Part shown: positions 4,005-64,000 of the stretch, piece by piece | How positions within the stretch are numbered: position 1 is the first letter of the stretch | Layout: each line of letters opens with the position of its first letter | Notes under the pieces: model-generated | Told to the model about the DNA's origin: nothing | Databases searched by the model: none | Seen by the model: only the letters and a program-made list of their open reading frames with translations | Origin: a virus | Lineage: Duplodnaviria; Heunggongvirae; Uroviricota; Caudoviricetes | Virus record (IMG/VR): IMGVR_UViG_2563366977_000001 | Location: 15,651-79,650 of that record | Reading direction: 5' to 3' (one strand) | DNA length: 64,000 nucleotides | Made by a program: the position numbers and the translations under genes

Positions 4005-4324
4005 CCCCCCTTCCCTTCCCAAATCTCCCTATTCCTTTGGTTATTCAGTGCGTTTCGTTGGTTGCATTCATCGATAGTGCTGAATAACTGTTCAGCGTAT
4101 GCCGGATACTTGTTTAACAGCACAGGCGTGTCCTCTGGCACTATGCAAGGGGTATAATCAATCAGATTTCCCTGCGGTTTGCTGGTGGCTTCTACGGTAA
4201 TTTGCATTGGCACGCTGATTGATTTCTTTTGCCCGTTCCCGCTGCATCCTGATAACGTCATCAGGCACACGCACATCATTAACCCCGGCATTGCGTAACG
4301 CAGTTTCAAGACGATTGATTTCAT
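4001..4324 (-). CDS. Rz1-like outer-membrane lipoprotein spanin, overlapping Rz in another frame
   Basis: Lipobox LSGC after a hydrophobic signal, Pro-rich mature part; embedded in and extending past the Rz 3' end. Confidence 0.55.
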   Translation of the reverse strand: MKSIVLKLRYAMPGLMMCVCLMTLSGCSGNGQKKSISVPMQITVEATSKPQGNLIDYTPCIVPEDTPVLLNKYPAYAEQLFSTIDECNQRNALNNQRNREIWEGKGG

Positions 4325-4616
4325 TCTGGCTTTCCTCCCGTTGTTTGATCAGGCTGGTATTCAGTTCTGCTGTTTTGCGCTGGTACTCCTTCTCCAGTGT
4401 TTTAATTCTTTCGTTTTCAGCCATCATGGCAGATCGCGATTTTTCACTTAACTGCAATGCGGTAGAAAGCGTGTTGTTCTCGCTTTCAAGTTGTGATTTT
4501 GAGTCTTCCAGGGAACGGATATACCTGATGTGATCGATAACTGCCGCCGTAGTACGGTAAATTCCATAAATGGCTAAAAGCGCAACTACTATCAAAATTA
4601 TCTTTTTCAAAACCAT
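4158..4616 (-). CDS. Rz-like inner-membrane spanin
   Basis: 152 aa; N-terminal TM helix (IILIVVALLAIYGIY) followed by long coiled coil. Confidence 0.6.
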   Translation of the reverse strand: MVLKKIILIVVALLAIYGIYRTTAAVIDHIRYIRSLEDSKSQLESENNTLSTALQLSEKSRSAMMAENERIKTLEKEYQRKTAELNTSLIKQREESQNEINRLETALRNAGVNDVRVPDDVIRMQRERAKEINQRANANYRRSHQQTAGKSD

Positions 4617-4686
4617 CCTCTTCAGATTTTTTGTTGGTGTGATATGTGTACCAATTTGTAACCATTTATGGGCTTAAATGGTGTGT

Positions 4687-5481
4687 TTATGGTTCCTTTT
4701 TAGTGTTGCTTTGGAGCGCATCGATCACACCTTGTGGCATGATCAAACTGATTGCCGGACTCATTACTTCATCGCCCAGTAGAGAACCGGTTAACGTAAT
4801 AGCTACAGCATTCTCCAGTCCCTGTTTGGCTTTTCCGGTAGAGTCCTTAACTTGCTGTACAAGTGTTGAGAGACTACTGCTCGTGTTGTTTATTGCATTT
4901 ATTTGTTCTGTTGCTGCTTCCACAGCGTCTTTTAGTGCTTTGATCTCTTCTTCTGTTAGTGCTGGTTGCTGTGTTGTTCCGGTGGAACTTCCGTTGCCTG
5001 AAGCCTCCCCGCTTGACGCCTGAACTTTTGCATTTATAGCGGTCATGGCTGAAGTGATTGGCACCAGTTCAAATGCTGCCAACGCGTCAATAAGCGATTG
5101 CGGATGCAGGGTATCTCCCATAACTGTTACGAGAGCAAATTCTGGCGCAGGAGATAACTCATTACCTTTGACGTAACATTCCCAGCCAATTTTCATCTGA
5201 AGTAATTCAGTTGGCGAAGTATACGGAGACAGCGAGTCGGCTAAATTGGTTGCTTCTGCACTGACAGTTTTCAGTTGTTCTGAAAAGACAGAAAGCTGAT
5301 TGACCCATGAAACCACCGACGCCGGGTATGCTTTATCCTTCAGGATAAGAGCCTGGATATTCTCTTCCAGAGAACTGGCATTGGATGACGCTGTTTTACT
5401 TAGCGTGATAGATGCAGGCGTAGTTGTGCCTGATGCATTTAGAATTTTGAATGCATTAACTTCAGCGATTGAATCAAGCAT
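4687..5481 (-). CDS. Hypothetical protein (possibly virion-associated)
   Basis: 264-aa ORF abutting PAAR-like gene stop; Ser/Thr/Ala-rich. Confidence 0.35.
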   Translation of the reverse strand: MLDSIAEVNAFKILNASGTTTPASITLSKTASSNASSLEENIQALILKDKAYPASVVSWVNQLSVFSEQLKTVSAEATNLADSLSPYTSPTELLQMKIGWECYVKGNELSPAPEFALVTVMGDTLHPQSLIDALAAFELVPITSAMTAINAKVQASSGEASGNGSSTGTTQQPALTEEEIKALKDAVEAATEQINAINNTSSSLSTLVQQVKDSTGKAKQGLENAVAITLTGSLLGDEVMSPAISLIMPQGVIDALQSNTKKEP

Positions 5482-5765
5482 TATGACACCTGAAAAATTG
5501 CCTCACCATTGGCGATGACTGAGCCACAAGAAAGGGGATCTCCCACACAAACAACTCCTTTCCCGCCTATTGCAAACCATGAGCGTGTCGATACGGCTGA
5601 TCCGGGGTGCGCGCTATTTCCGTCTGTATGGCTGGGGAACGCTCCCCCATCTACAACCACTGGCTTTCCATTTACGGTAAACCAGGAAACTGTTTCTGCT
5701 ACAGGTCGCGGAGGGAATCCTCCATGACCAGAACAAACTGTGTCACTGGTCGCTATTGCACTCAT
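5481..5765 (-). CDS. PAAR-like spike-tip protein
   Basis: 94 aa, Gly/Pro-rich with CSGHGG and repeated G-x-P / NGKPVV motifs resembling PAAR/DUF4150. Confidence 0.4.
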   Translation of the reverse strand: MSAIATSDTVCSGHGGFPPRPVAETVSWFTVNGKPVVVDGGAFPSHTDGNSAHPGSAVSTRSWFAIGGKGVVCVGDPLSCGSVIANGEAIFQVS

Positions 5766-5829
5766 CTAACACCTCCTTTTTCTTAAATCTTCTCCACTTT
5801 GTGATTTTCACTCTTCAGATTTCTTACTT

Positions 5830-6000
5830 CTCATATTTGTCTCTGATTTGTCTCAAACTGGTATCGTGGGCACATCATGTATCATCTAAGTCTCTTTTGT
5901 GTCTCTCTTGCGTCTCTAGTTTGATGCTTTTTACGCTATCTAACTTCTGGTCTTATTTTGTTTTCTCATATAAAATTCAATTCTTTCTCAAATGTGTCTC
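5830..6000. repeat. parC-like centromere: at least 6 GTCTC-containing iterons upstream of parM
   Basis: Repeated TTGTCTC / TGTGTCTC / GCGTCTC in AT-rich leader before ParM start. Confidence 0.45.
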
Positions 6001-6014
6001 AGAAGTGGAGCAAT

Positions 6015-6974
6015 ATGATGCGCATTTTTATCGACGATGGTTCTACCAATATCAAAATGCTGTGGGAACAAGACGGGGAAACTCGAACCCATATCTGTCC
6101 GAACAGTTTTAAACGTGGATGGTCCGCCACATTTGGCGCAGGAAAGCCGTTTAACTACATCATTGATGACGAAAAATATTCATATGACTTGATCTCGCCG
6201 GATGTGCTGCCGACGAATAACGTTGAATGGCAATACAGCCCGCTTAATGTGCTTGCTGTTCATCATGCCCTGCTTACAAGTGGCATTGAGCCTCAAGAAG
6301 TGGAAATAGTTGTCACGTTGCCACTGGCAGAGTTTTATGACGACGACGCACAATACAACATGAAAAATATTGAGCGGAAAAAGGCCAGCCTGATGCGACC
6401 AGTCACCCTTAACAAAGGTCAGGTTTTTACTATCAAAAAAGTGACTGTGCGCCCGGAGTCAATACCCGCAGGGATCGGTCTGTGCGACAGCCTTGTGCCA
6501 GCGCATTCTGTGCTTATTGTTGATCTTGGTGGGACTACTCTGGATGTGTCGATGGTCGCCGGGCAAATGACCGCCGTTTCTCGCGTATTTGGCGATTCTA
6601 ATCTCGGCGTTTCGCTGGTAACTAAAGAGGTCAGACAGGCACTTGCAAAAGCGAATACCGAAACCTCTAATTATAATGTCGATCAATTAATCATTAATCG
6701 TGATGATGAGGATTATTTGACCGACAATATTAACGATCCGTCTGCTATTGATGATGTTAAGAAAGCCATTTCGTCAAGCATAGAACGACTCCGTACACGC
6801 GTACTGGATGTGATCAGTGATTTCAAAGGATACACGCATGTTATGGTCATTGGTGGCGGCGCGCCGCTTGTTGCTGATGCTATCCGTGAGCAGGTAAACA
6901 TTCGTGACGATAGGTTTTTCGTTGCTGATGATCCACAACTTGCTCTTGTCTATGGTCTAAAATCTATCGGTTGA
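6015..6974 (+). CDS. parM: ParM/StbA actin-like plasmid segregation ATPase
   Basis: ORF trimmed to ATG 6015 with GTGGAG RBS; N-terminal IDDGSTNIK motif and DLGGTTLD phosphate-2 motif. Confidence 0.8.
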   Translation: MMRIFIDDGSTNIKMLWEQDGETRTHICPNSFKRGWSATFGAGKPFNYIIDDEKYSYDLISPDVLPTNNVEWQYSPLNVLAVHHALLTSGIEPQEVEIVVTLPLAEFYDDDAQYNMKNIERKKASLMRPVTLNKGQVFTIKKVTVRPESIPAGIGLCDSLVPAHSVLIVDLGGTTLDVSMVAGQMTAVSRVFGDSNLGVSLVTKEVRQALAKANTETSNYNVDQLIINRDDEDYLTDNINDPSAIDDVKKAISSSIERLRTRVLDVISDFKGYTHVMVIGGGAPLVADAIREQVNIRDDRFFVADDPQLALVYGLKSIG

Positions 6975-15377: not shown

Positions 15378-15738
15378 ATGAACATTAAACCTATCCGTAC
15401 AGAACAAGATTATGAGGCCGCACTGCGTGAAGTCGAACCGATGTTCGATAACGAACCGGAAATGAATACCCCGGAAGGTGATTTCTTTGAGGTCATGTGT
15501 CTTCTCATTGAGGAGTACGAGAAAAAACATTATTCCAATTGAGCCACCATCACCTATTGAAGCCATTAAGTTCCGTATGGAACAGCAAGGGCTGACCGTG
15601 AAGGATCTGGAACCGGCTATTGGTAAATCAAATCGTGTTTACGAGGTGCTAAATGGGACACGAAATTTGACGTTACCTATGATTCGCCGTTTACATTCCC
15701 AGTTTGGCATTCCTCTTGAAAGCCTAGTTGGTGTTTAA
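15378..15738 (+). pseudogene. Second HigA-like HTH antitoxin gene split by a 1-nt frameshift in an A6 tract
   Basis: ORFs 15357..15542 and 15478..15738 together resemble one HTH antitoxin; they differ by +1 frame at GAGAAAAAACATT (about 15521-15533). Confidence 0.45.
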
Positions 15739-17110: not shown

Positions 17111-17335
17111 CAAAGCCCACCTTAAGGTGGGCTTCGCCAGAAATTATTTTCTGGTATTCAGAACGCCATTACCGGACTTTGCCTTGACCAAGTATCACAA
17201 CAGGCTTGACCTGTTATGATAGCTGGTTGCGGGATGTCTGAATTTCTTCAGTCTGCTGCATCCTCGAAGGTTTGGTTCAACATGTACCATTCCTTCACCG
17301 TCATAATAGTGAACTATTCACGTCCTTACAAACAC

Positions 17336-22920: not shown

Positions 22921-23259
22921 TTAAGATTTTTCGGTAATGGTGATTTCATCTCCTAGCCGATAACGGCGGGGAACGGAATTCTCCATCAGGTCGCGAATTG
23001 CTCCCGCCTCACGCAGTTCCTCTGTCTCCCAGTATCTGTTTGTCACCAGGTCAAGGCTGGCAATGACTTTATGCCGGTCATTCGGCATGGCTTCTTTTTC
23101 AGCCATTATCATCAGTGAGAACTCTTCATCCAGTAGAATTTGATACCAGACTTTTGACAGTTCCAACTCTCTAATGAGGGTGAAGCGCCGCTCAATTGTG
23201 GCGGAAGAATAAGTGAAATCAATTTTTTTCGTGGCATACATTTTGCTGTGTCCGGTCAC
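22921..23259 (-). CDS. Hypothetical protein
   Basis: 112-aa ORF downstream of ant. Confidence 0.35.
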   Translation of the reverse strand: MTGHSKMYATKKIDFTYSSATIERRFTLIRELELSKVWYQILLDEEFSLMIMAEKEAMPNDRHKVIASLDLVTNRYWETEELREAGAIRDLMENSVPRRYRLGDEITITEKS

Positions 23260-23297
23260 TTAGTAGTTAAAGCCCCGGCATGACCGGGGCAAATCTA

Positions 23298-24239
23298 TTA
23301 ACTAACAATCCAGTCGGTCGCTGCTACATCTTCTGGCTGTAAATCAATCGCATAGATCTTGCCGTCGCGAATGGTGCGCCAGTTTTTCCGTGAGCCTCTT
23401 TCGGGCCATACCCAGACACTTTCAGGCCAGGATGCTCGACGGCATACGGTTGCATACCCTGTTTTAATCTTCTCTCTGGCGGTATGCAACGACAGGTTTG
23501 CCTTTGGACTTTCAGGCACAGGATGGTGAATGGCCTGAAATAGCCCCATCTTGGGATGATACCAGCGTTTGTTGCGTGGTTCTGCCTCCGACATAACCTG
23601 CTTAAAGGCTTTCCGGAAGGGGGCCAGGGCCACAATGGAGCGCCGCGCAAGCAAACCGTCGGGAGTTAAAAACTCATGCGTATCAGTGGGTATCCGGTAA
23701 GCGTTGACCAGGTTACGGCATTTGGCTTCAGTCAGGCCACATTTCGCCGCCAACTGGCGGTAGCCAATGTAGCCTTCCGGAATATTACCTTTCTTGATCT
23801 GCTCGACGGTTTCAGCGACTTTGGACACTTGTGCCGATACTTCGGCTACCTGGGCATTAACGGCGTTGATCCGGCGTTCATGCTCAAGATGCATTTGCGC
23901 CATTTCAGCCAGAATTTCGGCTTTTGATTTTAACTGTACCCGGGCATTCTCCAGTTCGCGCCAGCGGTCCACCAGCCGGGCGGTGAATTCGGGAGAGAGC
24001 TGCGCGACGACGACAATACTATCGCGCTTGCCTTGCTCGCCTTCGAAGACATAGACCGGATCTTTGACAACCTTCCCTAAGTTATTGATTCTTTCGACGA
24101 ACTCATTTTGAGTTTCTCGGATGACACCGCTAGCCATCATATTGCGAATGGTACGTAAAACATTGCCGTGACGACTACCAACTAACTCTGCAATATCTAG
24201 GCTACTCATTGTCGCTTTTTGAGAGATGGACAGATTCAT
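23298..24239 (-). CDS. ant: Antirepressor (Rha-family N-terminal domain), P1 ant-like
   Basis: 313 aa; N-terminal SSLDIAELVGSRHGNV Rha-like motif; follows icd-like ORF with ATGA overlap. Confidence 0.65.
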   Translation of the reverse strand: MNLSISQKATMSSLDIAELVGSRHGNVLRTIRNMMASGVIRETQNEFVERINNLGKVVKDPVYVFEGEQGKRDSIVVVAQLSPEFTARLVDRWRELENARVQLKSKAEILAEMAQMHLEHERRINAVNAQVAEVSAQVSKVAETVEQIKKGNIPEGYIGYRQLAAKCGLTEAKCRNLVNAYRIPTDTHEFLTPDGLLARRSIVALAPFRKAFKQVMSEAEPRNKRWYHPKMGLFQAIHHPVPESPKANLSLHTAREKIKTGYATVCRRASWPESVWVWPERGSRKNWRTIRDGKIYAIDLQPEDVAATDWIVS

Positions 24240-24454
24240 CAGTGCACCTCCACGCAGTTCATCGGCAGATTCCAGTAATTGAGGATCTCCATCGCATCAA
24301 GAGTGAAGCGAGCAGCAAAAATGCAGGGTTCTTCGGGAAGGTATGAGCGCGCTTCTGCTTCGGTTGCAGCCATGACGCAGATATACAGGTGTTTTTGGCA
24401 GGAATAGAAACGCCAGATAAATTCAGAATGAGTTGGGGTAGGGATAGTAGCCAT
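24239..24454 (-). CDS. icd: Icd-like small protein (immI operon, cell-division interference)
   Basis: 71-aa ORF upstream of and overlapping ant, as in P1 c4-icd-ant. Confidence 0.45.
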   Translation of the reverse strand: MATIPTPTHSEFIWRFYSCQKHLYICVMAATEAEARSYLPEEPCIFAARFTLDAMEILNYWNLPMNCVEVH

Positions 24455-24455
24455 A

Positions 24456-24560
24456 TTGGCAGCCTCCTTTTGCTAATTTAAGGAGCTACCGCGTGAGGTC
24501 TCAATCTCAATGGCGGTAGCACTGGCTGGGTTGAGACTACCGGCGCAAAAGGGAACCGGC
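24456..24560 (-). ncRNA. Candidate c4-like antisense RNA region
   Basis: Noncoding leader before icd with complementary stems (GCTACCGC / GCGGTAGC, GGTCTCAA / TTGAGAC); by position only. Confidence 0.3.
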
Positions 24561-25256
24561 CTGCCTTTCGGCAGCCCAGCCAGCACTACCATTGATCTTG
24601 GAGCTATACGCTACGTATGGCTGTGCGATGGCATGACACAAAAAAAGACGCTTTCGGCGTCTGTGTCGCCTTTTGCATTATCCGGGGTCTCAATCCCGGC
24701 ACCCGTTTTTCTAAGGTGCCGTAGAAATATACCTCACGATAATGCCAGGGCGCAACAGTCAGTATTTTATGCTTTGGCGGATTTCTTCCGGGCTTGCTTG
24801 CAGGCGTAGGCCATTGCTTTAGCTTTCACTTCATCCAGCTTTCCGGTGATCACTTCTTTTCCGAGAGTGACAAACCAGTCATAGCAACCGCCAGTGATGT
24901 TCTGGATTTGAAAGTTGAGGTAGCGAACGGTCATTTTGACACCCCCAGCGCGAGTAAAGAATGCAGATTATCGCGTGAGTGGCGGACAACGAGTGATGGG
25001 AAAGGACAGTAGCTGTTCATAGTGTAGTGACTCCTTGCTTTCGGAGCCGCCATCGACTGTTCCACGGTCTGGTGGCGGCGCAATAAAGGTTGGAACACCG
25101 TGAGTCAACGGGGGCTTTTCAGCCACCTATATTGCACCGCCATTGGTATGGCGGCGGCAATCATACGAAAAACCAAACGGTTTGTCTCAAAAAGTTGACC
25201 GGTGTACCAATCGGTTGTGAATGTACAACGGCGAATCTCACAATTCAACTTAAAAT

Positions 25257-25268
25257 GTTAGAAAATTA
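25257..25268 (-). promoter_or_regulatory. Operator-like motif (TGTTAGAAAATT) at head of the immI leader
   Basis: Recurrent motif about 800 bp upstream of icd. Confidence 0.4.
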
Positions 25269-25841
25269 ATTCATTAATTCAGTCACCATCTGATACAACG
25301 TCATTTCATCAGCATTGTGCCGCCTGAAATCTGCTTTGCCGCCTATTTTTCCATCAGCATGAACAGGAACCAACCAGGGGTATTGCTCGCGGATCTCTGC
25401 TGGCGCTGCGTGTTGATGGTGCCATTTACACAAAGGGAGGACGTATTTATGCGCGTTCTCTGCTGTTCTCCCAAAGATGTGGTGCAGGGATACCACAGGG
25501 CTATGCTGTCCGTGCATATGGCAGGCAATGCAGGGGAGAGCACCGATGGCAGTTTGTATCCGGCGCTCATCTGCTGTGAGTGTTCTGCCTTTCAGGCCGC
25601 GTGACGCGCGCGTTTTTTTGACAGGAGCAGAAGCGGCCTTCTCTTTTCTTCGCTGTTCATATTGCTTCGCTTTTTCAATTTTCTTTTGCCGATATTCAGG
25701 CGATGCGGCTTTTTCTCGCGCACGCTGCTGCTGGCGTTGAGCTTGCTGAAGACGCTTTGCCCTTTGTTCCTCCCGCCATTTCGGATCAGCCAGTTTTTGC
25801 AGGGCTTTTTGTGTCTGTTTCTCCCAATAGCTTTGCTTCAT
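25266..25841 (-). CDS. ref: Ref-like HNH endonuclease (recombination enhancement function)
   Basis: Trimmed to ATG 25841; K/R/Q-rich N-terminal region then Cys/His-rich HNH-like C-terminus (CIACHMHGQH ... CKWHH). Confidence 0.65.
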   Translation of the reverse strand: MKQSYWEKQTQKALQKLADPKWREEQRAKRLQQAQRQQQRAREKAASPEYRQKKIEKAKQYEQRRKEKAASAPVKKTRASRGLKGRTLTADERRIQTAIGALPCIACHMHGQHSPVVSLHHIFGRTAENAHKYVLPLCKWHHQHAAPAEIREQYPWLVPVHADGKIGGKADFRRHNADEMTLYQMVTELMN

Positions 25842-48582: not shown

Positions 48583-48658
48583 TGGTGGCCCCTACCGGAC
48601 TTGAACCGGTGACCGTGCGATTATGAGTCGCCCGCTCTAACCACTGAGCTAAAGGGCC
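48583..48658 (-). tRNA. tRNA with CAU anticodon, most similar to tRNA-Ile2 (lysidine) rather than tRNA-Met
   Basis: Hand-folded cloverleaf: acceptor GGCCCTT/AGGGGCC, anticodon arm GGCGA-CTCATAA-TCGC, T-loop GGTTCAAGTCC, 3' CCA. Confidence 0.75.
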
Positions 48659-49087
48659 AGATTACTGTTAATTACGCTTACGCTTTTTGCCAGAACCGCG
48701 TAAGGCTTTTGCCGCTTGCTCTACCCCGTATGCAACCACCAGCAGAAACAATAATGTCCACTCCGGGTTTTTATCGGCAAACGCCCAAAAATCCATCACT
48801 TGCAGCCACCTTTTAAGACAAAACGCCATTGCTGTTAGGTTGCGGTGCCGGGTGCCTCCCGGTGACGTTAACCAGTTAACAATTAACGCCGGATCACTTA
48901 TGGATTCTCGTTACGCCAGTAAAAAGACCACCTTTACTGTTTTAACTGTTCCGCGTGCGCTTAGCCGCATTCACCGCAATGGTAAGAGCATTTGGCTGAC
49001 TGGGCGGCGATGACGCCTGTACGCATTTGGTGATCCGGTTCTGCTTCCGGCATTCGCTTAATTAGCCAAATACTCTTAACGTTGCGA

Positions 49088-49174
49088 TGGCGGAGAGTAA
49101 TGGAATCGAACCATCATCGCTTGCGCGACGGGACGGTTTTCAAGACCGCTTGAGCACCATGCTCCCTACTCTCC
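49088..49174 (-). tRNA. tRNA-Ser (UGA anticodon), long variable arm
   Basis: Acceptor GGAGAGT/ACTCTCC, discriminator G, anticodon loop CTTGAAA, 17-nt variable arm, T-loop TTCGATT, CCA. Confidence 0.6.
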
Positions 49175-49415
49175 AGTGATTGTGGTGGTCGGTACTGATC
49201 TCCGACTGCGCCTCTTTTTTTCATAGCCCATAAGGCCGGTCAGTGCGCTTGATGACTGAGGCATCGATATTTACTACGCCGCCTCGTTGCCATAGGGCGG
49301 ACTTGCGCGCCAGCAACGCGCATTCACCACAACGGAAAGAGCATTTATGGCTCGCATCGCGGGAAAAAGCCCACGGTAGAGAGTCGAACTCTACAAATGC
49401 TCTTACCTGTTGTGT

Positions 49416-49491
49416 TGGTGCCGGTTAACGGGATCGAACCGCTGACCATTCGCTTACAAAGCGACTGCTCTACCAACTGAGCTAAACCGGC
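49416..49491 (-). tRNA. tRNA-Thr (UGU anticodon)
   Basis: Acceptor GCCGGTT/AACCGGC, D-arm AGCTCAGTTGGTAGAGC, anticodon loop TTTGTAA, T-loop GGTTCGATCC, CCA. Confidence 0.8.
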
Positions 49492-49495
49492 AATT

Positions 49496-49582
49496 TGGTG
49501 GGGAGTGATGGAGTCGAACCACCCGAGTCGCAATGACAGTAGATTTACAGTCTACACCGCTACCTCTACGGACTAACTCCCC
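49496..49582 (-). tRNA. tRNA-Tyr (GUA anticodon)
   Basis: Acceptor GGGGAGT/ACTCCCC, anticodon arm GTAGA-CTGTAAA-TCTAC, long variable arm, CCA. Confidence 0.8.
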
Positions 49583-49587
49583 TAAAT

Positions 49588-49662
49588 TGGCGATGGTGGG
49601 TGGATTCGAACCACCGACCAGTTGGTTAACAGCCAACTGCTCTACCGCTGAGCTACACCATC
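49588..49662 (-). tRNA. tRNA-Asn (GUU anticodon)
   Basis: Acceptor GATGGTG/CACCATC, anticodon arm GTTGG-CTGTTAA-CCAAC, T-loop GGTTCGAATCC, CCA. Confidence 0.85.
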
Positions 49663-54216: not shown

Positions 54217-57200
54217 TTAGGCCGCATCGGCGATTATTTTACGCAGTTCATCTACCGAGTAACGCGTAGATACCATCCATGCCGGACGGTCAAAGTTCAC
54301 ATCAGCAACCGGGTTTGCTTCAAAATTCCAGAAACGCCCGCCAATCTTCTTAATCGCGTCTTTGGCGTTCCGTATTGTCGAGGAACCTGGTTGGTCGGCA
54401 ATGAGATAAACCGCACCGACGTCCTCGCTGACGCTCCACCAGCGCCCGCGAACACGCGCCTTCGCGCGAATCGGCTTATCATTAACCACAATGATATAGT
54501 CATCATTCGCCGCTTCATCAGCTCTGGCTTCAGCCACTGCCGCCTGCTCTTCTCTTTTGCTTTCAGCCTGTTCAAGCCTTTCCGCGATCTCTGATTCGGT
54601 GGCCCCGCCGTTTTTCAGCGATACATAGTCTTGCCACGTTGCTGATTTGAGCGCATCCGGCAACTCATTCACATAGTCACCGTCTTTCAACTCACGGGCG
54701 CGGCGGGTAGCCATTTCTACCAGGCGATTAACAGAAACAGCATCAGCAAAATCGTCCTTACTAATGTGTTTTTCATCAAATGCATTGATGACAGCCCCCA
54801 CCTTAATCCACTGTGCTGCCGGTGATTCCAGGGGGTTATCAGCCTGGACAATGGCGAGTTTCGCTCCATCTACCCCATTATTCGCCAACTGTTCCAGTGC
54901 CGCCCATCCATCTGCATCACTGAGTGATTTATATTGCTCAAACAATGCATCGCGCCAGGCCGCCAGCGCAGAACGTGTTTTTTCGATCTTCGTCTTAATT
55001 TTCGCGATCTTGACCTGATTAAACATCCGTTCAATATCATCGATATTGCTAAAGGCTTTCATCCTGCCCTTGAATAAACGGTATGCCAGCACGGTCCTCC
55101 AGAATGATTCCAGACCTTCTCCGGACGGTTTGCGGAACAAGCTAAGAATATCTTCAGAAGTGACTTTATTAAGCGAACGACCTGACAGACCACGCCCAGC
55201 CATCCAGTTTTCGAACTCCTGGGCAACATCATCCATCGTTGCCTGTGCGCCCCATGCCTGCATTCCCTGGATGTAATCATACCCATACAATGCCTGGAGG
55301 AATCCCTCACCGTCCACGATATTCAGCGGGTTATCACTGGCTTGTATTTTTGCCACTTCACGCTTCAGCGCCTCATCGTTGCCATCTGGATATATCCATC
55401 GTTCAGGTACTATATCCGATGCTCGCCCGATTTTTTGGCCTATCACGCCATCATAGGCCGATGACAGCGCGATCTGACCATCATCTGTGCGATATGCCCA
55501 GTATTTAATAGCTGACCCACCGCCCCATGCATTACCAGGTTTACCAGCAATAACATTCATTACCCCATTGCGAATAGCATCATAGAACTGATCGCGAGTA
55601 AGTATTGTTGATAGCTGGTGGCACTGAACACCACGCGCAGCCGTTGCGCGCGATTCAGCTACCCCCTCTTCAAAAGTTACCGCTTCAATCACAGAGTCAA
55701 ACGGCAATGTAACGATTGACCCCGGTGATCGAGCGTAACGACTTGCTCTATCCAGCCAGGCGATACGGCAGAGGTATTGTGCTTTTTCACCGTCAATTTT
55801 TTCCACCCGGACAATCGCTGTTGTTTCGCGATCATCAATGACTGCACGGTAATAACTACCTTTATGCAACAGGATATTCTTGTCAGTGCGCATATATTCC
55901 TGTGGGTTCTGAATAACATCGATACTGATATCCAGCACACCAGACTTAATAGCGCGCTCCACATCACCACGAGAGCGTTTCATTATGGTATCCGCGTCTT
56001 TTGCCCTGGTGATCGCAAACCGCAGCACCCGCGCACGTTTTCTGTAGCTACTCAACTGCTCAAGCGCGAATTTTTGCCCATTCCTGTTCGTACCCGCTTT
56101 TATCAGGTCGTCAAGATTTCGCTGGTAATACTCTATCTGTTCCATCGCGCTTTTCAGTTCTGTCTCCATCATGCCGATATCTTTTCCAGCGGCGTTTGCC
56201 GCTTTCAGGTAGATATCGAGAGCATTGTTGGCCTCGCGCTGTGCTTTCAGTTTCAGACGTTCTTCACGCTCTTGCGCCTGGCGAGCCATGATTGCGCGGC
56301 GTTCTTCCGGGTTTGCCGCCAGCATAATGGCGCGTTCATCAGCATCATCCGCATCACCATTGGCGATCTCTGACATGTCGGAGGTCATCACCATCTTGAT
56401 CCAGTCTTTCTTACGTTTCAGCGTATCCAGACGGAAGTCGTCGAATGTGCCTTTGCCACAATAGTAGTGAACATTGACCTTCTCTTGCGGTGAACCTACG
56501 CGCGCACCGCGCCCATTTCGTTGGTCGATACTGGCTGGTGTCCAGGGTAGTGTCAGGTGGTGGATATCGGTTGTCCCGATATGCAGGTTAATACCTACTT
56601 CAGCCTTCTTGTTACAGATAATGATGCGCGTGCGCCCTTCGTTATAGTCGGCGGCAATGCCTTCCATACCCTCAAGGCCAGCATCATTTTTAGCTGAGAG
56701 ATAATCCTCATATTGGGCAAGTTTGCTGTAGTAGGTTTCCCATGCCCCTTCTTTGTATTCACCGTTTTTATTCGGAGTAGGTTCAGTCGGCTTATTCACC
56801 TTCTTCAGCTTGATGCCGCCAGCCTGGCTAACGGTCGTCGCATTGATAATGCCTATCTCCTGCTCCGGCATTTGCAGTGCACTGGCGATAATACGGCGCA
56901 GCTTCTGGTGCTGGGCTTTTTCATCAATGAAGACAATTTGTTTACCGTTCTTCAGACCTTCACGAAGGTTTTCGATCAGCGCGGCATACTTCGGCGGGAT
57001 GGGGTGTGATACCTGCTGCAGATCAATCCCGGCGGCAGCAATGGCCTTCAGTATTTCAGCTTCCAGTTCAATGCTGGCACGTATTTCAACATGCGCCGGA
57101 TGTTCACTAAAGGTGGTCTTCACTACCTTACTGGTGCGCGTACTAACCAGCCCACCAGCGCCGTCTTCTTCGGCCTCGTCTGCATCATCTGCCACTTTAC

Positions 57201-60200
57201 CGCCAGCTACTTTTGGCAGGGCATCAGCAATAGCTTTTACCTTGTCTGCAAGCTCAACGGGGAACTGGAATGTAATCGCACTGGCATACAGATCCGGATC
57301 TATAGCAACCTTATCCATGTCGCGGATGATGGAGAAGATGAAATCATCCGGTTTTTCGTTTGTGATATGCCCGTTTTCATCAACCGTCAGCGCATCTTTA
57401 CTACTTAACTCCTGTGCACGCTTACGAAGCTCTTCATAAGCAGCCTCCTGCTCCCCTGTCATCGGGATCTGCAAGGTATTCTCGACAATATCAGGGATTT
57501 TAACCGTCGCCCCGACGTCCGCAGCAGTCTTCAGAGTAGTCCAGCGATGGAAAATACCACGCAGGCCATCAAGGTTCTGGAAGCCAACCAGCCCCTGCTT
57601 CTCTTCCACTTCCCCGGAAATTTTCTGGACCTGAACTGTGGCTGTTTTACCAAACACACGAACGAAATCATCAGGCGTAATGATGCCCATGCGCATCCAC
57701 TCTTCCTGCGGAATGACAGTAGACAGCATGTTGAAGGCATCAATCGGACTGTTCACCAGCGGTGTTGCCGTCAGCATGACTACACCACGCCCGTTGTTGC
57801 GTTTCATCATGTACGCAGCTTTTACAGCCATGTCGCGGGCCATCTTGGATACTGCCGGGTTAGGCAAATATGCCAGTTGTCCCGCTTCACGCCCGGCATT
57901 AAAGGAGTTGCGGTAGTTATGCCCCTCGTCGGCAATCACGCTATCGAAGTTCATATCCTCAAAGTACGGGATATTCTGCTTCTTCGTTGTACCGGTATTC
58001 GCGGCCTGATCCTTAATCTTGTTCTTCTTCTGCGCATCACGGTGTTTACCAGACGCCAGGTCAAGACGCCCCATTTCCACAGCATTAAAGACAGCTTGCT
58101 GTGAGTTCTCCTCGATGGTTTTTTCTCGTAGCGGGATAGACGCGAATTGTTCTTTTGTCATGATGACCGTTCGCCAATTTGACGACGGGATCATGTTCAT
58201 GCGCTGAACGATAACGGCGCTGGCGGACTCTTTCACAACATTTCTGGTAAGAGGCTGCCCGTTACTGTCGAGGCGTGGTTCGCCATTTTCATCAAGCACC
58301 GGCGCGGTCAGAATATTTCCGCTGTCATCACGAACTTCATCCAAACCGATAAACATCATATTGGCGAAGGCATCAGCACTGTAGAAACTCTGTGCCTCGT
58401 GATACCAGTTCTGATAAACCGCCTTCGGAACAACAATACACGTGCGTTTAGTGCGACCTGTTTCGAAGTTATACGCCTCAAGCGCAAGCGCGGTCGTGGT
58501 TTTACCCAGCCCGGTACCAAATCCCATGATGCCGCGCCCATCTTCTGACAAGCGACGAACTTCTTCATTCTGATAAGTCAGAGGAATGCGCTTTCCACTA
58601 ATCCCTTCCAGGCCAAGCGGTGCGTTAGAGTGCGTGAACGGAATGAAGCCATTGAATGCGTCGTTATAGTCACGGGCTATCTGATCCGCCTGCGGGTGGG
58701 TGCGTAACCAGTCGTTAAAGCTAACTTCCAGTTGAGCAATTTTATCCAGGTACTCGTTAGCGTTCTGCCCACGCGGTTTAACACCGTTCAGGTAGTTTTC
58801 TAACTGGTTCAGGAAGCCGTCTTTATTGTTGGCCTTCTTGAACTCATTCCCGTTTTTGCCGTTTACGGTTCGTAGTTGATAGCCGGTAAATACCCCGTCC
58901 TTACCTTCGTAATCGTCCGGAGATACCAGAATGCCATCGACGACCTTCAGATCAGGTTCAGTGTACTTAAACTCGTCATAGCCCTGCTCTGCCAGGAACT
59001 CTTTTATCAAGCGGCGATCCAGCCAGCGGGCGTTCAGATTAACGGTGACTTTATTTAGTGGCGTGAAAATGCGTTTCTCTTCGATTTTCGCCAACTGACG
59101 CTCAAAGTTCGCTTTCTGTTCACCTGTTGACGCATCACGCCAGCCCACCAGCAATGTTGTTTTGGTTGCAATATCGCCGCTGGTGGCGCGGTCCATCGGC
59201 AGCAGGCAGCCATACCCATCAATAGCGATATCATCAAATTTCGCCAGGTATTCAAGGGCCGCGTCGTCGTCCTCTGGCAGTTCACCAGCAAACGCCTCAC
59301 GAAAGTCGCCCAGCGTTATAGGATTAAGGGCTACATCACTGAAAAGATGTGCTATCACTTGTTCCGGACGTGTAAAGTCAATACCGGCAGCACCATCCGT
59401 TACATCAAGTCGCCCTGCCAGAAGGTCAGAAGTGGAACCATCCTGTTTCACATTGCCAGTGAACGTCATCCAGTTTTTAGCGCCAGCTTCAGCAAGCCCA
59501 TTCAGCTTAATCGCGTGCGGTGGTCCATACTTCGCAACTTCTGCTGCCGCCAGGCGGGATGCATCTGCCAGTTTGTCATCAACGTTCACCCCCAGGTTAC
59601 GCAAATCAAGTGCCTTGTTGATCAACTGCCCTATCAACGCACCGCGCATAACGCGCTCCCTGTCTTTTTCTCGCTGTTTGCCAGCAAAGCGAATCATTGC
59701 TGCCACTTCATCACTGACAACCGATGGATAGTCGGACGCGATCGCCGATATCTGGTCCCATGACAAAGCCAGAATCCCGTTTGTTGACTGGAATGCGATC
59801 TGCAGATCGCCAAACGTCGAAACACCATATCGACTTACATCAAGCGCGGAGGATTTGGTTGTCGTGTCCTTAACCCATTTCAGGCCATCAAACTCATGCC
59901 AGATACCGCCTACAAGACGCTTATCCCCTACTTTTGCGCCCTGCCATGCCTGGGTAGTTACTCCGAGCAAATCCCAATTAATACGGCTTTCAAAGCGGCG
60001 TGATAACGCGGTTTTCATCGACTCATTGGATACACGACCGTCCTTTTTCACCACCAGGGTATTGCGGAAGCTGGTGCGTTCCATGTCGCCGTAAACAAAT
60101 CGCTTCCCTTCGGTTGTAAACCATTTCCCTTTGAGGAAGGTATCCCAAAGGACGTTTGCCGATTTGAGCGTTGCATCATCCGTGTCGGGGATCATCTCCA

Positions 60201-61068
60201 GGAAGGTTTCCGGGTGTTTACGCAATACCCATACGTCCACCACGGTATCTGTACCGGACTCGCTGAACGTACCAGAAGGCATACGATGCGCGCCCAAAAA
60301 TTCCGCTTTACGGCTGACTTTATCGCGCAATTTTTTGTATTTCGTACCATCGGTCATGCCATTCGGCACCACCAATACAATTAGTCCACCAGGCTTAACC
60401 TTGTCGATCGTGCGCAGCACAAAATAATTGCCAACGTTCTTCTCGTTTGCATATGCCGGATCAAGCCCGGCGACGCCGGAACGCCCTTCGCCAAACGGTA
60501 CGTTACCAACTGCGTGGTCATACATTGCATCTTTCGCCGCCAGCGCCTCAAACGCCCCGATATTCACATCATCTTCCGGGTGCAAAAGCTGGTTTATTCG
60601 ACCGGAGATCGGAGACAGTTCGGCGCTGGTCATTATCATGCCCTGCCGTTTTGTCTCCTGGAAAATACCTGTGCCTGCTGACGGTTCCAGTACGTGACCG
60701 CTATCAATACCGTAGTCGCCGAAGAGATCCCATATACCTTCTGCCATAAACTGTGGCGTATAGTATTCGTATTGGCTGCCCTCACCATCTGTCAGGCCGC
60801 CTTCACCGGTATACCCGGCAAGAATCTGGCGCTGTTCGTCAGTTAATTTCGCCCCATCGAAGCCAGGCGGAAGGGAATTAAGAAGATTTACTGCGGCGTT
60901 GTTTGCTGCCCGGCGTGTTTTCTGAATACTGACGCCATCGACTTTCTTAACGCCAAAGGTCACTACAGCTCGCGGTTTATGCAACCGACTAACAATTTCA
61001 ATCAGCGCCCCAATGCTGGTGGCCTGGCTAATTGAATCAATTATTTTGTCCAAAGGAAGCCCCCTCAA
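54217..61068 (-). CDS. darB: DarB-like giant methyltransferase-helicase (capsid-packaged anti-restriction protein in P1)
   Basis: 2283 aa; N-terminal MTase motifs (LEPSAGTGIF, NVPF), central helicase Walker A GFGTGLGKTT and DEGH box. Confidence 0.85.
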   Translation of the reverse strand: MRGLPLDKIIDSISQATSIGALIEIVSRLHKPRAVVTFGVKKVDGVSIQKTRRAANNAAVNLLNSLPPGFDGAKLTDEQRQILAGYTGEGGLTDGEGSQYEYYTPQFMAEGIWDLFGDYGIDSGHVLEPSAGTGIFQETKRQGMIMTSAELSPISGRINQLLHPEDDVNIGAFEALAAKDAMYDHAVGNVPFGEGRSGVAGLDPAYANEKNVGNYFVLRTIDKVKPGGLIVLVVPNGMTDGTKYKKLRDKVSRKAEFLGAHRMPSGTFSESGTDTVVDVWVLRKHPETFLEMIPDTDDATLKSANVLWDTFLKGKWFTTEGKRFVYGDMERTSFRNTLVVKKDGRVSNESMKTALSRRFESRINWDLLGVTTQAWQGAKVGDKRLVGGIWHEFDGLKWVKDTTTKSSALDVSRYGVSTFGDLQIAFQSTNGILALSWDQISAIASDYPSVVSDEVAAMIRFAGKQREKDRERVMRGALIGQLINKALDLRNLGVNVDDKLADASRLAAAEVAKYGPPHAIKLNGLAEAGAKNWMTFTGNVKQDGSTSDLLAGRLDVTDGAAGIDFTRPEQVIAHLFSDVALNPITLGDFREAFAGELPEDDDAALEYLAKFDDIAIDGYGCLLPMDRATSGDIATKTTLLVGWRDASTGEQKANFERQLAKIEEKRIFTPLNKVTVNLNARWLDRRLIKEFLAEQGYDEFKYTEPDLKVVDGILVSPDDYEGKDGVFTGYQLRTVNGKNGNEFKKANNKDGFLNQLENYLNGVKPRGQNANEYLDKIAQLEVSFNDWLRTHPQADQIARDYNDAFNGFIPFTHSNAPLGLEGISGKRIPLTYQNEEVRRLSEDGRGIMGFGTGLGKTTTALALEAYNFETGRTKRTCIVVPKAVYQNWYHEAQSFYSADAFANMMFIGLDEVRDDSGNILTAPVLDENGEPRLDSNGQPLTRNVVKESASAVIVQRMNMIPSSNWRTVIMTKEQFASIPLREKTIEENSQQAVFNAVEMGRLDLASGKHRDAQKKNKIKDQAANTGTTKKQNIPYFEDMNFDSVIADEGHNYRNSFNAGREAGQLAYLPNPAVSKMARDMAVKAAYMMKRNNGRGVVMLTATPLVNSPIDAFNMLSTVIPQEEWMRMGIITPDDFVRVFGKTATVQVQKISGEVEEKQGLVGFQNLDGLRGIFHRWTTLKTAADVGATVKIPDIVENTLQIPMTGEQEAAYEELRKRAQELSSKDALTVDENGHITNEKPDDFIFSIIRDMDKVAIDPDLYASAITFQFPVELADKVKAIADALPKVAGGKVADDADEAEEDGAGGLVSTRTSKVVKTTFSEHPAHVEIRASIELEAEILKAIAAAGIDLQQVSHPIPPKYAALIENLREGLKNGKQIVFIDEKAQHQKLRRIIASALQMPEQEIGIINATTVSQAGGIKLKKVNKPTEPTPNKNGEYKEGAWETYYSKLAQYEDYLSAKNDAGLEGMEGIAADYNEGRTRIIICNKKAEVGINLHIGTTDIHHLTLPWTPASIDQRNGRGARVGSPQEKVNVHYYCGKGTFDDFRLDTLKRKKDWIKMVMTSDMSEIANGDADDADERAIMLAANPEERRAIMARQAQEREERLKLKAQREANNALDIYLKAANAAGKDIGMMETELKSAMEQIEYYQRNLDDLIKAGTNRNGQKFALEQLSSYRKRARVLRFAITRAKDADTIMKRSRGDVERAIKSGVLDISIDVIQNPQEYMRTDKNILLHKGSYYRAVIDDRETTAIVRVEKIDGEKAQYLCRIAWLDRASRYARSPGSIVTLPFDSVIEAVTFEEGVAESRATAARGVQCHQLSTILTRDQFYDAIRNGVMNVIAGKPGNAWGGGSAIKYWAYRTDDGQIALSSAYDGVIGQKIGRASDIVPERWIYPDGNDEALKREVAKIQASDNPLNIVDGEGFLQALYGYDYIQGMQAWGAQATMDDVAQEFENWMAGRGLSGRSLNKVTSEDILSLFRKPSGEGLESFWRTVLAYRLFKGRMKAFSNIDDIERMFNQVKIAKIKTKIEKTRSALAAWRDALFEQYKSLSDADGWAALEQLANNGVDGAKLAIVQADNPLESPAAQWIKVGAVINAFDEKHISKDDFADAVSVNRLVEMATRRARELKDGDYVNELPDALKSATWQDYVSLKNGGATESEIAERLEQAESKREEQAAVAEARADEAANDDYIIVVNDKPIRAKARVRGRWWSVSEDVGAVYLIADQPGSSTIRNAKDAIKKIGGRFWNFEANPVADVNFDRPAWMVSTRYSVDELRKIIADAA

Positions 61069-61824: not shown

Positions 61825-62316
61825 ATGATTATGATCAATAATGAACCTCGCTGGCTTATTGAAGCCCGTAAAAATATTGGAGTCACCGAAATAAAAGGAG
61901 CGAAACACAATCCTGAGATCGTCCAGTTCTGGCGGGATATTAAGCGCAGCGGAATTAAAGACGACGAAACGCCGTGGTGCGCTGCATTTGTTGGTGCAAT
62001 GCTGGAACGTGTAGGCATCCGCTCAACAAGATTTGAGTCGGCAAAATCCTATCTGGATTGGGGCGAGAAATTAGATACACCGGCATATGGATGTATCGTT
62101 GTATTTACTCGCACAGGCGGTGGGCATGTAGGCTTTGTTGTCGGACGCCGCGCCAATGGCGATCTGCTTGTCTTGGGTGGGAACCAGGGGGATGCTGTTA
62201 ATATTCGCGCATTCCCCACATCAAGAGTGTCTGGCTATCGCTGGCCTACTGGAGAACCACGCAATACAGCTCTGTTACCAGTCGGAGACGCAGCGACCTC
62301 AACTAATGAGGTATGA
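61825..62316 (+). CDS. Putative cell-wall hydrolase (CHAP / NlpC-P60-like)
   Basis: 163 aa; conserved Cys (ETPWCAAFVG) and His (GGGHVGFVVG) spaced as in papain-fold amidases. Confidence 0.45.
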   Translation: MIMINNEPRWLIEARKNIGVTEIKGAKHNPEIVQFWRDIKRSGIKDDETPWCAAFVGAMLERVGIRSTRFESAKSYLDWGEKLDTPAYGCIVVFTRTGGGHVGFVVGRRANGDLLVLGGNQGDAVNIRAFPTSRVSGYRWPTGEPRNTALLPVGDAATSTNEV

Positions 62317-62347
62317 AAAAGCCCCGGCCAGGCCGGGGCATCACACT

Positions 62348-63252
62348 TCAAGTTACGATCCAATCATTACCGACTGCATCCGCCGTCGATAAATCGACTT
62401 CCCGGATCTGGCATCCATTAATACAAAACCATCCGGTAGTAGAGCAATTATCAGGCCAGACCCATACACCAACACTCCATGCTTCACGGCGGCACACTTC
62501 AGCCTGTCCTTCCCTGATTTTTTTTACCGCCTGCATGATGTCCATCACTCGCCTCCCCAACCGATCACCTGGAATTGCCCCATCCTTGGGTGATACCAGC
62601 GTTTTCCTCGGTGTTCAGCCTCCGACATCATCAGGGTAAAGGCATTCATGAAGGGAGATAAGGCCACAATAGTACGACGCGACAATACCCCCTCTGGCGT
62701 CAAAAACTCATGAGTATCTGTGGGGATCTGGTAAGCGTTGACCAGGTTGCGGCATTTGGCTTCAGTCAGGCCGCATTTCGCCGCTAACTGGCGATAGCCA
62801 ATGTAGCCTTCCGGAATATTGCCTTTCTTTATTTGCTCGACGGTTTCAGCAACCTGGCTAACCTTTGACTCAACAACATGAAGCCGCTTTTGCTGCTGAA
62901 CTGCATTTGCAGCCATTGCAGCGATCATCTCTATTTCGGTCAACGGCTGGCGTACTTGTTCTTCCAGTTCGCGCCAGCGGTCCACCAGCCGGGCGGTGAA
63001 TTCGGGAGAGAGCTGCGCGACGACGATAATACTATCGCGCTTGCCTTGCTCGCCTTCGAAGACGTAAGCCTCGACACTACGGCGTAGTCCTAAGTTATTG
63101 ATTTTTTCGAAAACCTGCAATGCAGGAAGTTGAATAACTCCAGATTTAGCCAGGCGCTCTATTGATATTTTTACGTTATCTGGACGACTTCCCACCAGCT
63201 CCGCGATCTCAATGCTGGTCATTGATGGCTTTTCGAGAATGCAGATATCCAT
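62348..63252 (-). pseudogene. Second ant-like antirepressor copy, split into two ORFs by a frameshift
   Basis: ORF 62545..63252 matches ant residues 1-about 235 and ORF 62348..62560 matches the ant C-terminus in another frame; long stretches over 90% nt identity to 23600-24060. Confidence 0.5.
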
Positions 63253-63476
63253 CAGTGAGCCTCCGCAATGCCGGGATTGGTAATATTGCGATACCAGGGA
63301 TTAGTGTTTGGTTGTGGGGAAGTAGAGAAACGACCAGTAAGAACACCATATTGATCAGGGATCAGAGAACGGGCTTCTTTTTCGGTTGCGGCAATTGCGA
63401 AGTGATCGCAGTGTTTTTGCAGGGAGTGGAAACGCCAGATGAATTCTGGACGTGAGCAAGGATTGGCATTAACCAT
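63252..63476 (-). CDS. Second icd-like small protein
   Basis: 74 aa; shares EFIWRF.S.QKH...AATE.EAR with ORF 24239..24454. Confidence 0.45.
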   Translation of the reverse strand: MVNANPCSRPEFIWRFHSLQKHCDHFAIAATEKEARSLIPDQYGVLTGRFSTSPQPNTNPWYRNITNPGIAEAH

Positions 63477-63804
63477 AGTTACGGCCTCACTAACAGGTTT
63501 AACAACCTGCTACCCGCTGTCAAACAGGTGGCAGGACGTGACAGGGTTGACAGACTGGCGTTAGTGAAACCAGCAGGCCGAAGCCTCCCCATCACGCCCC
63601 ACCATAATTCGGGCGTAACGCGGTTTACGGACACAAAAATACCGCAATATCGGAAATCTGCGGTTGTCCGCACTAACATTCAGGCTGTCAAACCTGGTCG
63701 CAGAATTTGCTACGACGGCATGAATATAAGCCTGAACATTAGAAAGATCAACAGAATTTTTATCAGATGCTGTTTTTTTGTGACGATGTAAATCATACAT
63801 TCTT

Positions 63805-63838
63805 GATTAGAAACATCAATTTAATTTTCTAACATACA
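63805..63838. promoter_or_regulatory. Operator pair TTGATTAGAAACATCAA / AATTTTCTAACATA upstream of second immI copy
   Basis: Inverted pair of recurrent motif. Confidence 0.45.
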
Positions 63839-63891
63839 TTTTCGAGCGATGAAATTCCCGCCGCACGGTTATTGTACAGTCAATCGCAACA

Positions 63892-64000
63892 TCATCCCCG
63901 AAAGCCCTCCGGAATTGACCAGTCTTCCCGGTCAAATTCAGACCTATAGCCACGCTGTTTCATCAGGTCAAATGCTTCATTGATGGTTGCACATCCCTGG
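63892..64000 (-). CDS. C-terminal fragment of a minus-strand gene running off the window end
   Basis: Open frame ending in TGA at about 63892 (..EAFDLMKQRGYRSEFDREDWSIPEGFRG). Confidence 0.3.
   Translation of the reverse strand, partial: QGCATINEAFDLMKQRGYRSEFDREDWSIPEGFRG

Follow-up and report, generated by a model that had tools for sequence, protein, structure and literature searches.

We have found that a 64,000-nucleotide (nt) stretch of a Caudoviricetes genome (IMG/VR record IMGVR_UViG_2563366977_000001, positions 15,651 to 79,650; hereafter the window) carries two immunity I (immI)-type modules of the kind known from phage P1. Each combines a C4 antisense RNA with an icd homologue and an antirepressor-type gene (ant). 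In P1, C4 is cut from the leader and pairs with the a2 and b2 sites, which blocks translation of icd and of the coupled antirepressor (features annotated in NC_005856). The window very probably derives from a D6-like prophage whose two operons diverged anciently and are independently gated, with a normal two-gene layout in the second operon (copy 2). A preliminary description had named both modules, and they are indeed there: each has a C4 RNA above the Rfam gathering score, the a1/b1 and a2/b2 sites, an icd homologue and an antirepressor-type gene. The same description regarded the ant gene of copy 2 as broken by a frameshift, a view that our results do not support.

Both modules lie entirely on the minus strand, as do all features below unless stated otherwise, and both follow the order a1/b1, C4 RNA, a2/b2 at the icd ribosome-binding site, icd, antirepressor-type gene, Tad2-like domain and terminator. 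The C4 RNA of copy 1 (24509..24596) scores 76 bits with Rfam family RF01695, whose gathering score is 45 (E 4.6e-13). Its a' word, GTCTCAA (24531-24537), lies in the single-stranded linker and its b' word, CCTTTTGC (24545-24552), in the loop of hairpin 2; both are unpaired in the minimum-free-energy fold. Exact site matches place a1 (TTGAGAC) at 24687-24693 and b1 (GCAAAAGG) at 24669-24676, while a2 (24498-24504) and b2 (24466-24473, abutting the GGAGG Shine-Dalgarno sequence of icd) are exact complements of a' and b' and show three-way covariation in relatives. In copy 2 the C4 RNA (63524..63609) scores 68.8 bits against the same gathering score, and positions 63527-63603 match exactly the 77-nt C4 of P1 (misc_RNA c4). 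Site matching located its a' at 63547-63553 and b' at 63560-63566. The remaining four sites are the same as those annotated in P1: a1 TTGACAG (63685-63691), b1 GTTAGTG (63671-63677), a2 (63517-63523) and b2 (63488-63494), which abuts the GAGG Shine-Dalgarno sequence of icd. A c4-a1b1 element was also detected in copy 2 (63671..63729; Rfam RF03163, 54.4 bits against a gathering score of 46.7).

In each module, then, both single-stranded C4 words have exact 7-8-nt complements twice, upstream (a1, b1) and downstream (a2, b2). The two leaders had been called unrelated, which is incorrect: both match the Rfam C4 family and have the same architecture, at an identity of 35-50% that BLAST does not align. 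The accompanying suggestion of two antisense specificities was right. Copy 1 uses a=TTGAGAC and b=GCAAAAGG, copy 2 a=TTGACAG and b=GTTAGTG, and exact site matching found none of the other module's a or b words in either module. The modules differ at three of seven positions in a and five of eight in b. P7 departs from P1 by two bases in each word, and this difference suffices for heteroimmunity. The modules of the window differ from each other more than P1 does from P7.

Leaders were compared across 15 distinct copy-1-type and 13 distinct copy-2-type sequences drawn from D6, plasmids, IMG/VR contigs, P1 and P7. Four word combinations occur at the copy 1 locus and six at the copy 2 locus (P1, P7 and D6 types included), and a and b words reassort independently among relatives. 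The triplets a1/a'/a2 and b1/b'/b2 are perfectly complementary (7/7 or 8/8) in all four plus six variants. Because this compensatory change is three-way in every variant, the comparison argues strongly for two functional switches whose specificity is under selection. Whole-molecule RNAduplex and cofold energies did not discriminate cognate from non-cognate pairs, since the C4 stems were opened, and exact site matching was used instead.

On the model of P1, each operon would be transcribed from its own promoter into a leader holding a1/b1, the C4 RNA and a2/b2, and the C4 RNA would be excised from it. By pairing with a2/b2, its a' and b' words would then mask the ribosome-binding site of icd, so that icd translation is shut off and, through TGATG coupling, that of the downstream Rha/Roi-type antirepressor. 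Upon entry into a naive cell the operon would fire until C4 accumulates. The two modules would be gated independently because their C4 RNAs recognize different 7-8-nt words. In copy 1, a short IsrK-like RNA that contains a1/b1 may modulate the switch, as in Gifsy-1. C4 processing, repression in vivo, antirepressor activity and the function of the Tad2-like domain are all things that we infer.

The icd homologue of copy 1 (24239..24454, 71 amino acids (aa); phrog_1426, E 3.7e-41) is 63% identical to P1 Icd, and that of copy 2 (63252..63476, 74 aa; phrog_1426, E 5.7e-39) is 61% identical. In both, the stop codon overlaps the ant start by a single base (TGATG). The copy 1 antirepressor of Rha/Roi type (Ant1, 23298..24239, 313 aa; phrog_63, E 3.8e-61) is fused to a Tad2-like C-terminal domain that makes up the last 65 codons (23298-23495). 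It matches Pfam Phage_pRha (PF09669) with 37.1 bits, above the cut-off of 29.9. The copy 2 counterpart (Ant2, 62545..63252, 235 aa; phrog_63, E 8.3e-47) is full length for its family. Its Phage_pRha score of 21.6 bits is below that cut-off, but along its entire length it shares 70-74% identity with Roi homologues. A separate 65-aa Tad2-like open reading frame (ORF) follows at 62348..62545.

Upstream of copy 2, the promoter scan found a P51b-like promoter (63723..63751, TTGATC-17-TATATT) that aligns with the annotated P1 promoter P1c4/P51b, together with a second candidate at 63792-63819. A candidate promoter of copy 1 was read from the sequence at 24726..24755 (TTGCGC-18 nt-TATATT) and is kept in the leaders of 15 distinct relatives. 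The copy 1 leader also contains an IsrK-like segment (24641..24719; Rfam isrK RF01394, 59.1 bits against a gathering score of 50) that ends in a terminator-like hairpin (24646-24662, terminator scan) followed by T7; copy 1 alone combines an above-threshold IsrK match with a rho-independent terminator. Downstream, the terminator scan placed an intrinsic terminator of copy 2 at 62321..62339 (GCCCCGGCCTGGCCGGGGC followed by TTTTT, eight GC pairs). The corresponding hairpin of copy 1 (23272..23290, GCCCCGG-N5-CCGGGGC), read from the sequence, has the same stem and a short T-run, so that it was not flagged by the scan.

The preliminary description located a frame break in the ant gene of copy 2. 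The frame does change, exactly at 62545 (TGATG), but the native Roi terminus and purifying selection do not bear out a damaged gene. A sequencing error is ruled out: the same junction is present in D6, seven finished plasmids and 21 IMG/VR loci. At this junction (...GGGGAGGCGAGTGATGGAC...) a single A belongs both to the TGA stop of ant and to the start codon (ATG) of the 65-aa ORF, which has a GGAGG 8 nt upstream; the one-base overlap is of the kind found at both icd/ant junctions. Across the 30 loci examined, the junction is invariant except for one silent C/T difference, and Ant2 has 235 aa in all but one of the loci compared. We consider the 235-aa protein, from its sequence, to be the native full-length form, because some 60 lambdoid Roi homologues, at 70-74% identity, terminate at this very residue with the motif ..FQVIGWQR*. 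The 313-aa protein of copy 1 is the form with an extra domain fused via a short linker. No sequence resembling the small ORF follows roi in these about 60 homologues. Among relatives, icd2 has a ratio of nonsynonymous to synonymous variation (pN/pS) of 0.04, with variable sites at first, second and third codon positions of 3/1/19, and ant2 a pN/pS of 0.22 (28/31/81). Both genes are under purifying selection. So is the C-terminal domain of copy 1 (pN/pS 0.15; 9/6/32).

Several observations weigh against the reading of two working operons. The candidate promoter of copy 1 is too weak for the consensus promoter scan. The P1 C1 operator (Op51, ATTGCTCTAATAAATTT) has no match in the whole window at up to three mismatches, which bears on repressor control; the repressor/operator system of the element must therefore differ from that of P1, despite a copy 2 leader that is 96% P1-like. 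A AATGTATG repeat upstream of copy 2 was considered as a dispersed operator and rejected. The label antirepressor is a family annotation only, and neither window protein is related to P1 Ant1/Ant2 (BLASTP E 0.35 for P1 Ant1 against Ant2 of the window). Truncation or a frameshift affects the fused ant of copy 1 in 6 of 24 related loci (212 aa in L120, L131, L132 and L145, 45 aa in L104 and 299 aa in L109); this gene is therefore dispensable in some lineages, and the copy sometimes found broken in nature is copy 1 rather than copy 2. Lastly, the 65-aa ORF has a pN/pS of 0.66 with uniformly spread variable sites (11/11/10), and one of its 13 distinct sequences is frameshifted in an A8 run, the other 12 being intact.

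The small ORF leads to the rival that survives best. In it, Ant2 and the copy 2 switch are functional, while the 65-aa ORF has stayed open by chance as a remnant that is redundant or has no function, and only the fused domain of copy 1 is at work. Variable sites of the ORF are compatible with a uniform spread over the codon positions, in significant contrast to its neighboring genes (binomial P 0.002), and the copy 1 C-domain is strongly constrained. However, nearly all distinct sequences of the ORF are intact, its Shine-Dalgarno sequence and start overlap are invariant, and its nucleotide divergence (pS 0.05-0.07) stays below the synonymous values of its neighbors (0.14-0.21), so that it is not drifting freely. 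Distant stand-alone homologues are moreover the sole cargo of other C4 modules, as described below. We regard the remnant as a possibility to be taken seriously, though one that is probably wrong. The small ORF is weakly constrained, perhaps from redundancy with the fused copy. The initial nine sequences were too few to assess selection on the small ORF and the copy 1 C-domain, and the set was extended with IMG/VR loci. An alternative-frame 44-aa hydrophobic ORF (62353-62487) lies within the small ORF; in the first nine sequences the variable sites fell mostly at its third positions (10/20), a bias that disappeared with more sequences (11/11/10) and was probably noise.

There is evidence that the extra domain is a distant member of the Tad2/AcrIIA7 fold (DUF2829). 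An AlphaFold model (predicted local distance difference test score 81.6) has SPO1 Tad2 as its five best Foldseek matches in the PDB, at a probability of 0.98-1.0, which assigns the model to the Tad2 fold. Matches to Pfam Tad2-like (PF11195, cut-off 25 bits) are sub-threshold in four of five members, with 16.6 bits for the small ORF and 23.9 for the best relative (P0005), whose match spans the whole profile; the copy 1 domain has no match to this profile. A PDB sequence-profile search did not return Tad2. With 13-19% identity, scores below the Pfam cut-off and a very small family, the domain thus differs from Tad2/AcrIIA7 proper. An exhaustive profile search of 1.84 billion clusters gave seven representatives, comprising fused 313-aa and stand-alone 65-96-aa forms, and a word-indexed protein search with the 65-aa ORF gave three clusters only; PHROG 7385 is a family of stand-alone 65-aa proteins. 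Two distant stand-alone homologues (P0005 and P0006) are encoded on two ~90-kb plasmid-like contigs with ParM/StbB genes. Here Tad2-like genes of 68 and 96 aa stand immediately behind a c4-a1b1 element and a C4 RNA (L173:3746-4207 and L175:3752-4291), with the b2 word at the Tad2-like start codon and with neither icd nor ant, which makes them the only gene behind C4. Judged from these arrangements, the Tad2-fold domain is recurrent cargo of C4-gated modules.

The modules might be mainly early-pulse anti-defence cassettes, switched on only until C4 accumulates after entry, with the Tad2-like protein rather than lysogeny control as their key role. The fold match to Tad2 and AcrIIA7, the near-threshold Pfam scores and the stand-alone homologues of the two contigs, each the sole gene behind C4 with b2 at its start, speak for such a role. 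Yet the sequence match falls under the Pfam cut-off, the PDB profile search was without Tad2, and Ant and Icd have established roles in lysogeny and cell division in P1. We therefore consider this explanation doubtful.

Much less likely still is the reading of the preliminary description, in which a frameshift inactivated ant and copy 2 is a duplicate in decay. The C-terminal domain is in frame with ant in copy 1 and in another frame in copy 2, the detached ORF is near-neutral, and the protein database includes truncated or frameshifted single-member variants (P0002, P0003 and P0008), all of which a decaying gene would explain. Decay is difficult to reconcile with the length and C-terminal motif that Ant2 shares with the Roi homologues, with purifying selection on ant2 and icd2, with the exact TGATG overlap and GGAGG in all loci examined, with a C4 RNA and targets that are intact and co-varying, and with stand-alone homologues of the small ORF elsewhere. 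In our view copy 2 is very unlikely to be decaying.

The preliminary description also reported stretches of ant that are over 90% identical between the copies, and this was confirmed; its example coordinates come into register after a 4-nt offset, with one mismatch in about 62 nt. By blastn, 23534-24097 and 62568-63110 are 76% identical over 570 nt (E 2e-114). A sliding profile resolved two islands, 23949-24038 against 62962-63051 at 98% and 23679-23828 against 62713-62862 at about 92%; outside them the copies are 35-75% identical, and the longest exact run is 64 nt. At the protein level the copies share 63% identity in Ant (over 237 aa), 40% in the C-terminal domain and 45% in Icd. The N-terminal type of Ant was assigned by best match only. 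Each copy has its closest relatives elsewhere. The leader of copy 2 shares 96% identity with P1 immI over 309 nt. The copy 1 leader and icd start are 88-95% identical to an extra module in P1-like elements such as RCS47 and JL22, with 90% for the second module of RCS47, the leader is about 70% identical to isrK/C4 leaders beside Rha-family genes in Stx phages, and its C4 region is 71.5% identical to the immunity region of P4 over 149 nt. Since the islands share ~90% identity with lambdoid roi genes and recur in the same pattern in 10 of 10 genomes compared, they are best read as mosaic segments common to the Roi family, and the modules as anciently diverged paralogues that would not have arisen by recent duplication. 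A recent segmental duplication within the genome, kept similar by gene conversion, might be suspected from highly identical islands in otherwise diverged genes and from the like terminator stems, but is highly improbable given that leaders and icd genes differ between the copies as much as they do from P1, that each copy has a different close relative, and that the islands are shared with roi and among all the genomes compared. Ongoing intragenomic gene conversion was likewise dropped, as the within-genome profiles had no recent conversion tract.

The two copies, 39 kb apart, had further been proposed as a substrate for homologous deletion. One metagenomic contig has the predicted junction, but none of 72,556 finished plasmids has it. 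In this 10.7-kb contig (IMGVR_UViG_3300013958_000038, our loci L092/L031), positions 4253-6302 link what lies upstream of copy 2 with what lies downstream of copy 1. The order is repL, P1-type C4, icd2, a mosaic ant, the fused copy 1 C-domain and pmgF, after which the contig is colinear with window 21342-17392. Segments of its ant alternate between copy 2 and copy 1 type (2-1-2-1), with breakpoints in identical islands. The contig is either a real 39-kb deletion product of a crossover between the repeats or an assembly chimera; path-switching at identical k-mers in short-read assembly would give the same picture. The deletion is plausible but unproven. A p75 deletion variant of pYU39 was considered as a repeat-mediated deletion and rejected, since it affects the baseplate/tail region.

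Phage D6 is a circular plasmid prophage related to P1. Megablast alignments of window regions 23000-25400 and 62000-64000 to Escherichia phage D6 (MF356679) gave 93.4% and 90.5% nucleotide identity, respectively, over the full length. On this sequence likeness the window is a D6-like, P1-family plasmid prophage with two immI-type operons. The D6 record places orf83 (icd-like) and orf82 (anti-repressor, Rha/Roi/KilA-like) between ref and pmgF, which is the layout of copy 1. It places orf19 (icd-like), orf18 (anti-repressor, Roi-like) and orf17 (hypothetical, 65 aa), the layout of copy 2, between repL and the peptidoglycan hydrolase/darB. D6 and D6-like plasmids such as pYU39_89 thus resemble the window in both modules, in their flanks (repL/hydrolase/darB and ref/pmgF) and in the split and fused layouts. 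D6 differs in its 90-93% nucleotide identity and in a copy 2 b word of ACTTACG, as against the full P1 specificity of the window. A second c4/icd region has been noted in pYU39_89 (PMC6799933). Coverage of 80% or more is reached in 109 PLSDB plasmids for the copy 2 module and in 92 for copy 1. The carriers are mostly ~90-kb non-mobilizable plasmids of Escherichia or Salmonella, and the closest is from E. marmotae (98.4%). The dual c4-icd-ant layout is already known, being annotated in D6, noted for pYU39_89 and recurrent in about 100 finished plasmids; overall, the two-module arrangement is ordinary and previously annotated.

Compared with P1 and P7, the modules of the window have the same arrangement of a1/b1, C4 and a2/b2 over the icd ribosome-binding site, with icd coupled to the next gene, and the same shift of specificity by compensatory changes; the C4 and four sites of copy 2 are identical to those of P1. 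They differ in a Rha/Roi-type effector in place of Ant1/Ant2, in the lack of an Op51 C1 operator, in the position of repL (upstream in the window, downstream in P1), in the added Tad2-like domain and in the presence of two modules per genome. Copy 1 also resembles the isrK-orf45-anrP locus of Gifsy-1 and the isrK/C4-Rha loci of Stx phages, its own leader having an isrK match and terminator that are followed by C4 and an antirepressor-type gene. The Stx-phage leaders at about 70% identity likewise lie beside Rha-family genes, and one is annotated as "C4 antisense RNA | isrK". The presence of an icd gene sets the window module apart from these loci. The IsrK mechanism has been described for Gifsy-1, where the short RNA activates translation in trans (PMC4825925). 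The lambdoid Roi/Rha proteins (HK97 Roi type) share 70-74% identity over the whole 232-235 aa, the C-terminus and the Phage_pRha match, whereas the window proteins stand behind C4-icd and that of copy 1 is extended by a 78-aa linker plus domain. Satellite phage P4 uses a leader-derived antisense RNA of the same kind, and its immunity region resembles the copy 1 C4 region to the extent given above. P4 differs in that it controls its own replication genes, via transcription termination, rather than an icd-ant pair.

Other features of the window were recorded alongside the modules. ORFs that run across the C4 RNA gene of copy 1 (24473-24592 on the minus strand and 24510-24809 on the plus strand) are annotated as proteins in public records, as a 39-aa "ash family protein" in RefSeq plasmids and as orf84 in D6. 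Both annotations are probably misannotated C4 RNA genes. In Gifsy-1, orf45 downstream of isrK is reported to be translated (PMC4825925). Just beyond the copy 2 module, a 2283-aa ORF (54217-61068) is the counterpart of D6 orf15, whose annotation notes a similarity to P1 darB (defence against restriction). Elsewhere, the phage-plasmid has a strong Rfam match to the sroH small RNA (17112-17297; 113 bits against a gathering score of 80) and four clustered tRNA genes (48586-49662; Rfam tRNA, 41.6-75.5 bits), all on the minus strand.

The finding as first noted matters little, and its three by-products, namely word covariation, annotation errors and the Tad2-fold cargo, are of modest value. At least 10 a/b word specificities with three-way compensatory evolution extend the P1/P7 heteroimmunity paradigm. 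The C4 RNA of copy 2, identical to that of P1, is predicted to silence the icd-ant of a co-resident or superinfecting P1. The database errors exposed concern a C4 gene that is listed as orf84 or as an "ash family protein". Beyond what was known, the only lead is the Tad2-fold cargo of C4 modules, which could connect antirepressor switches with anti-defence. It is tempting, if rather improbable, to see C4-type switches as general expression gates for the first minutes after entry, whose cargo includes a Tad2/AcrIIA7-fold protein. Should the domain sponge immune signalling nucleotides, or sense them and signal to the antirepressor, then anti-defence and the choice between lysis and lysogeny would be connected through immI-like modules.

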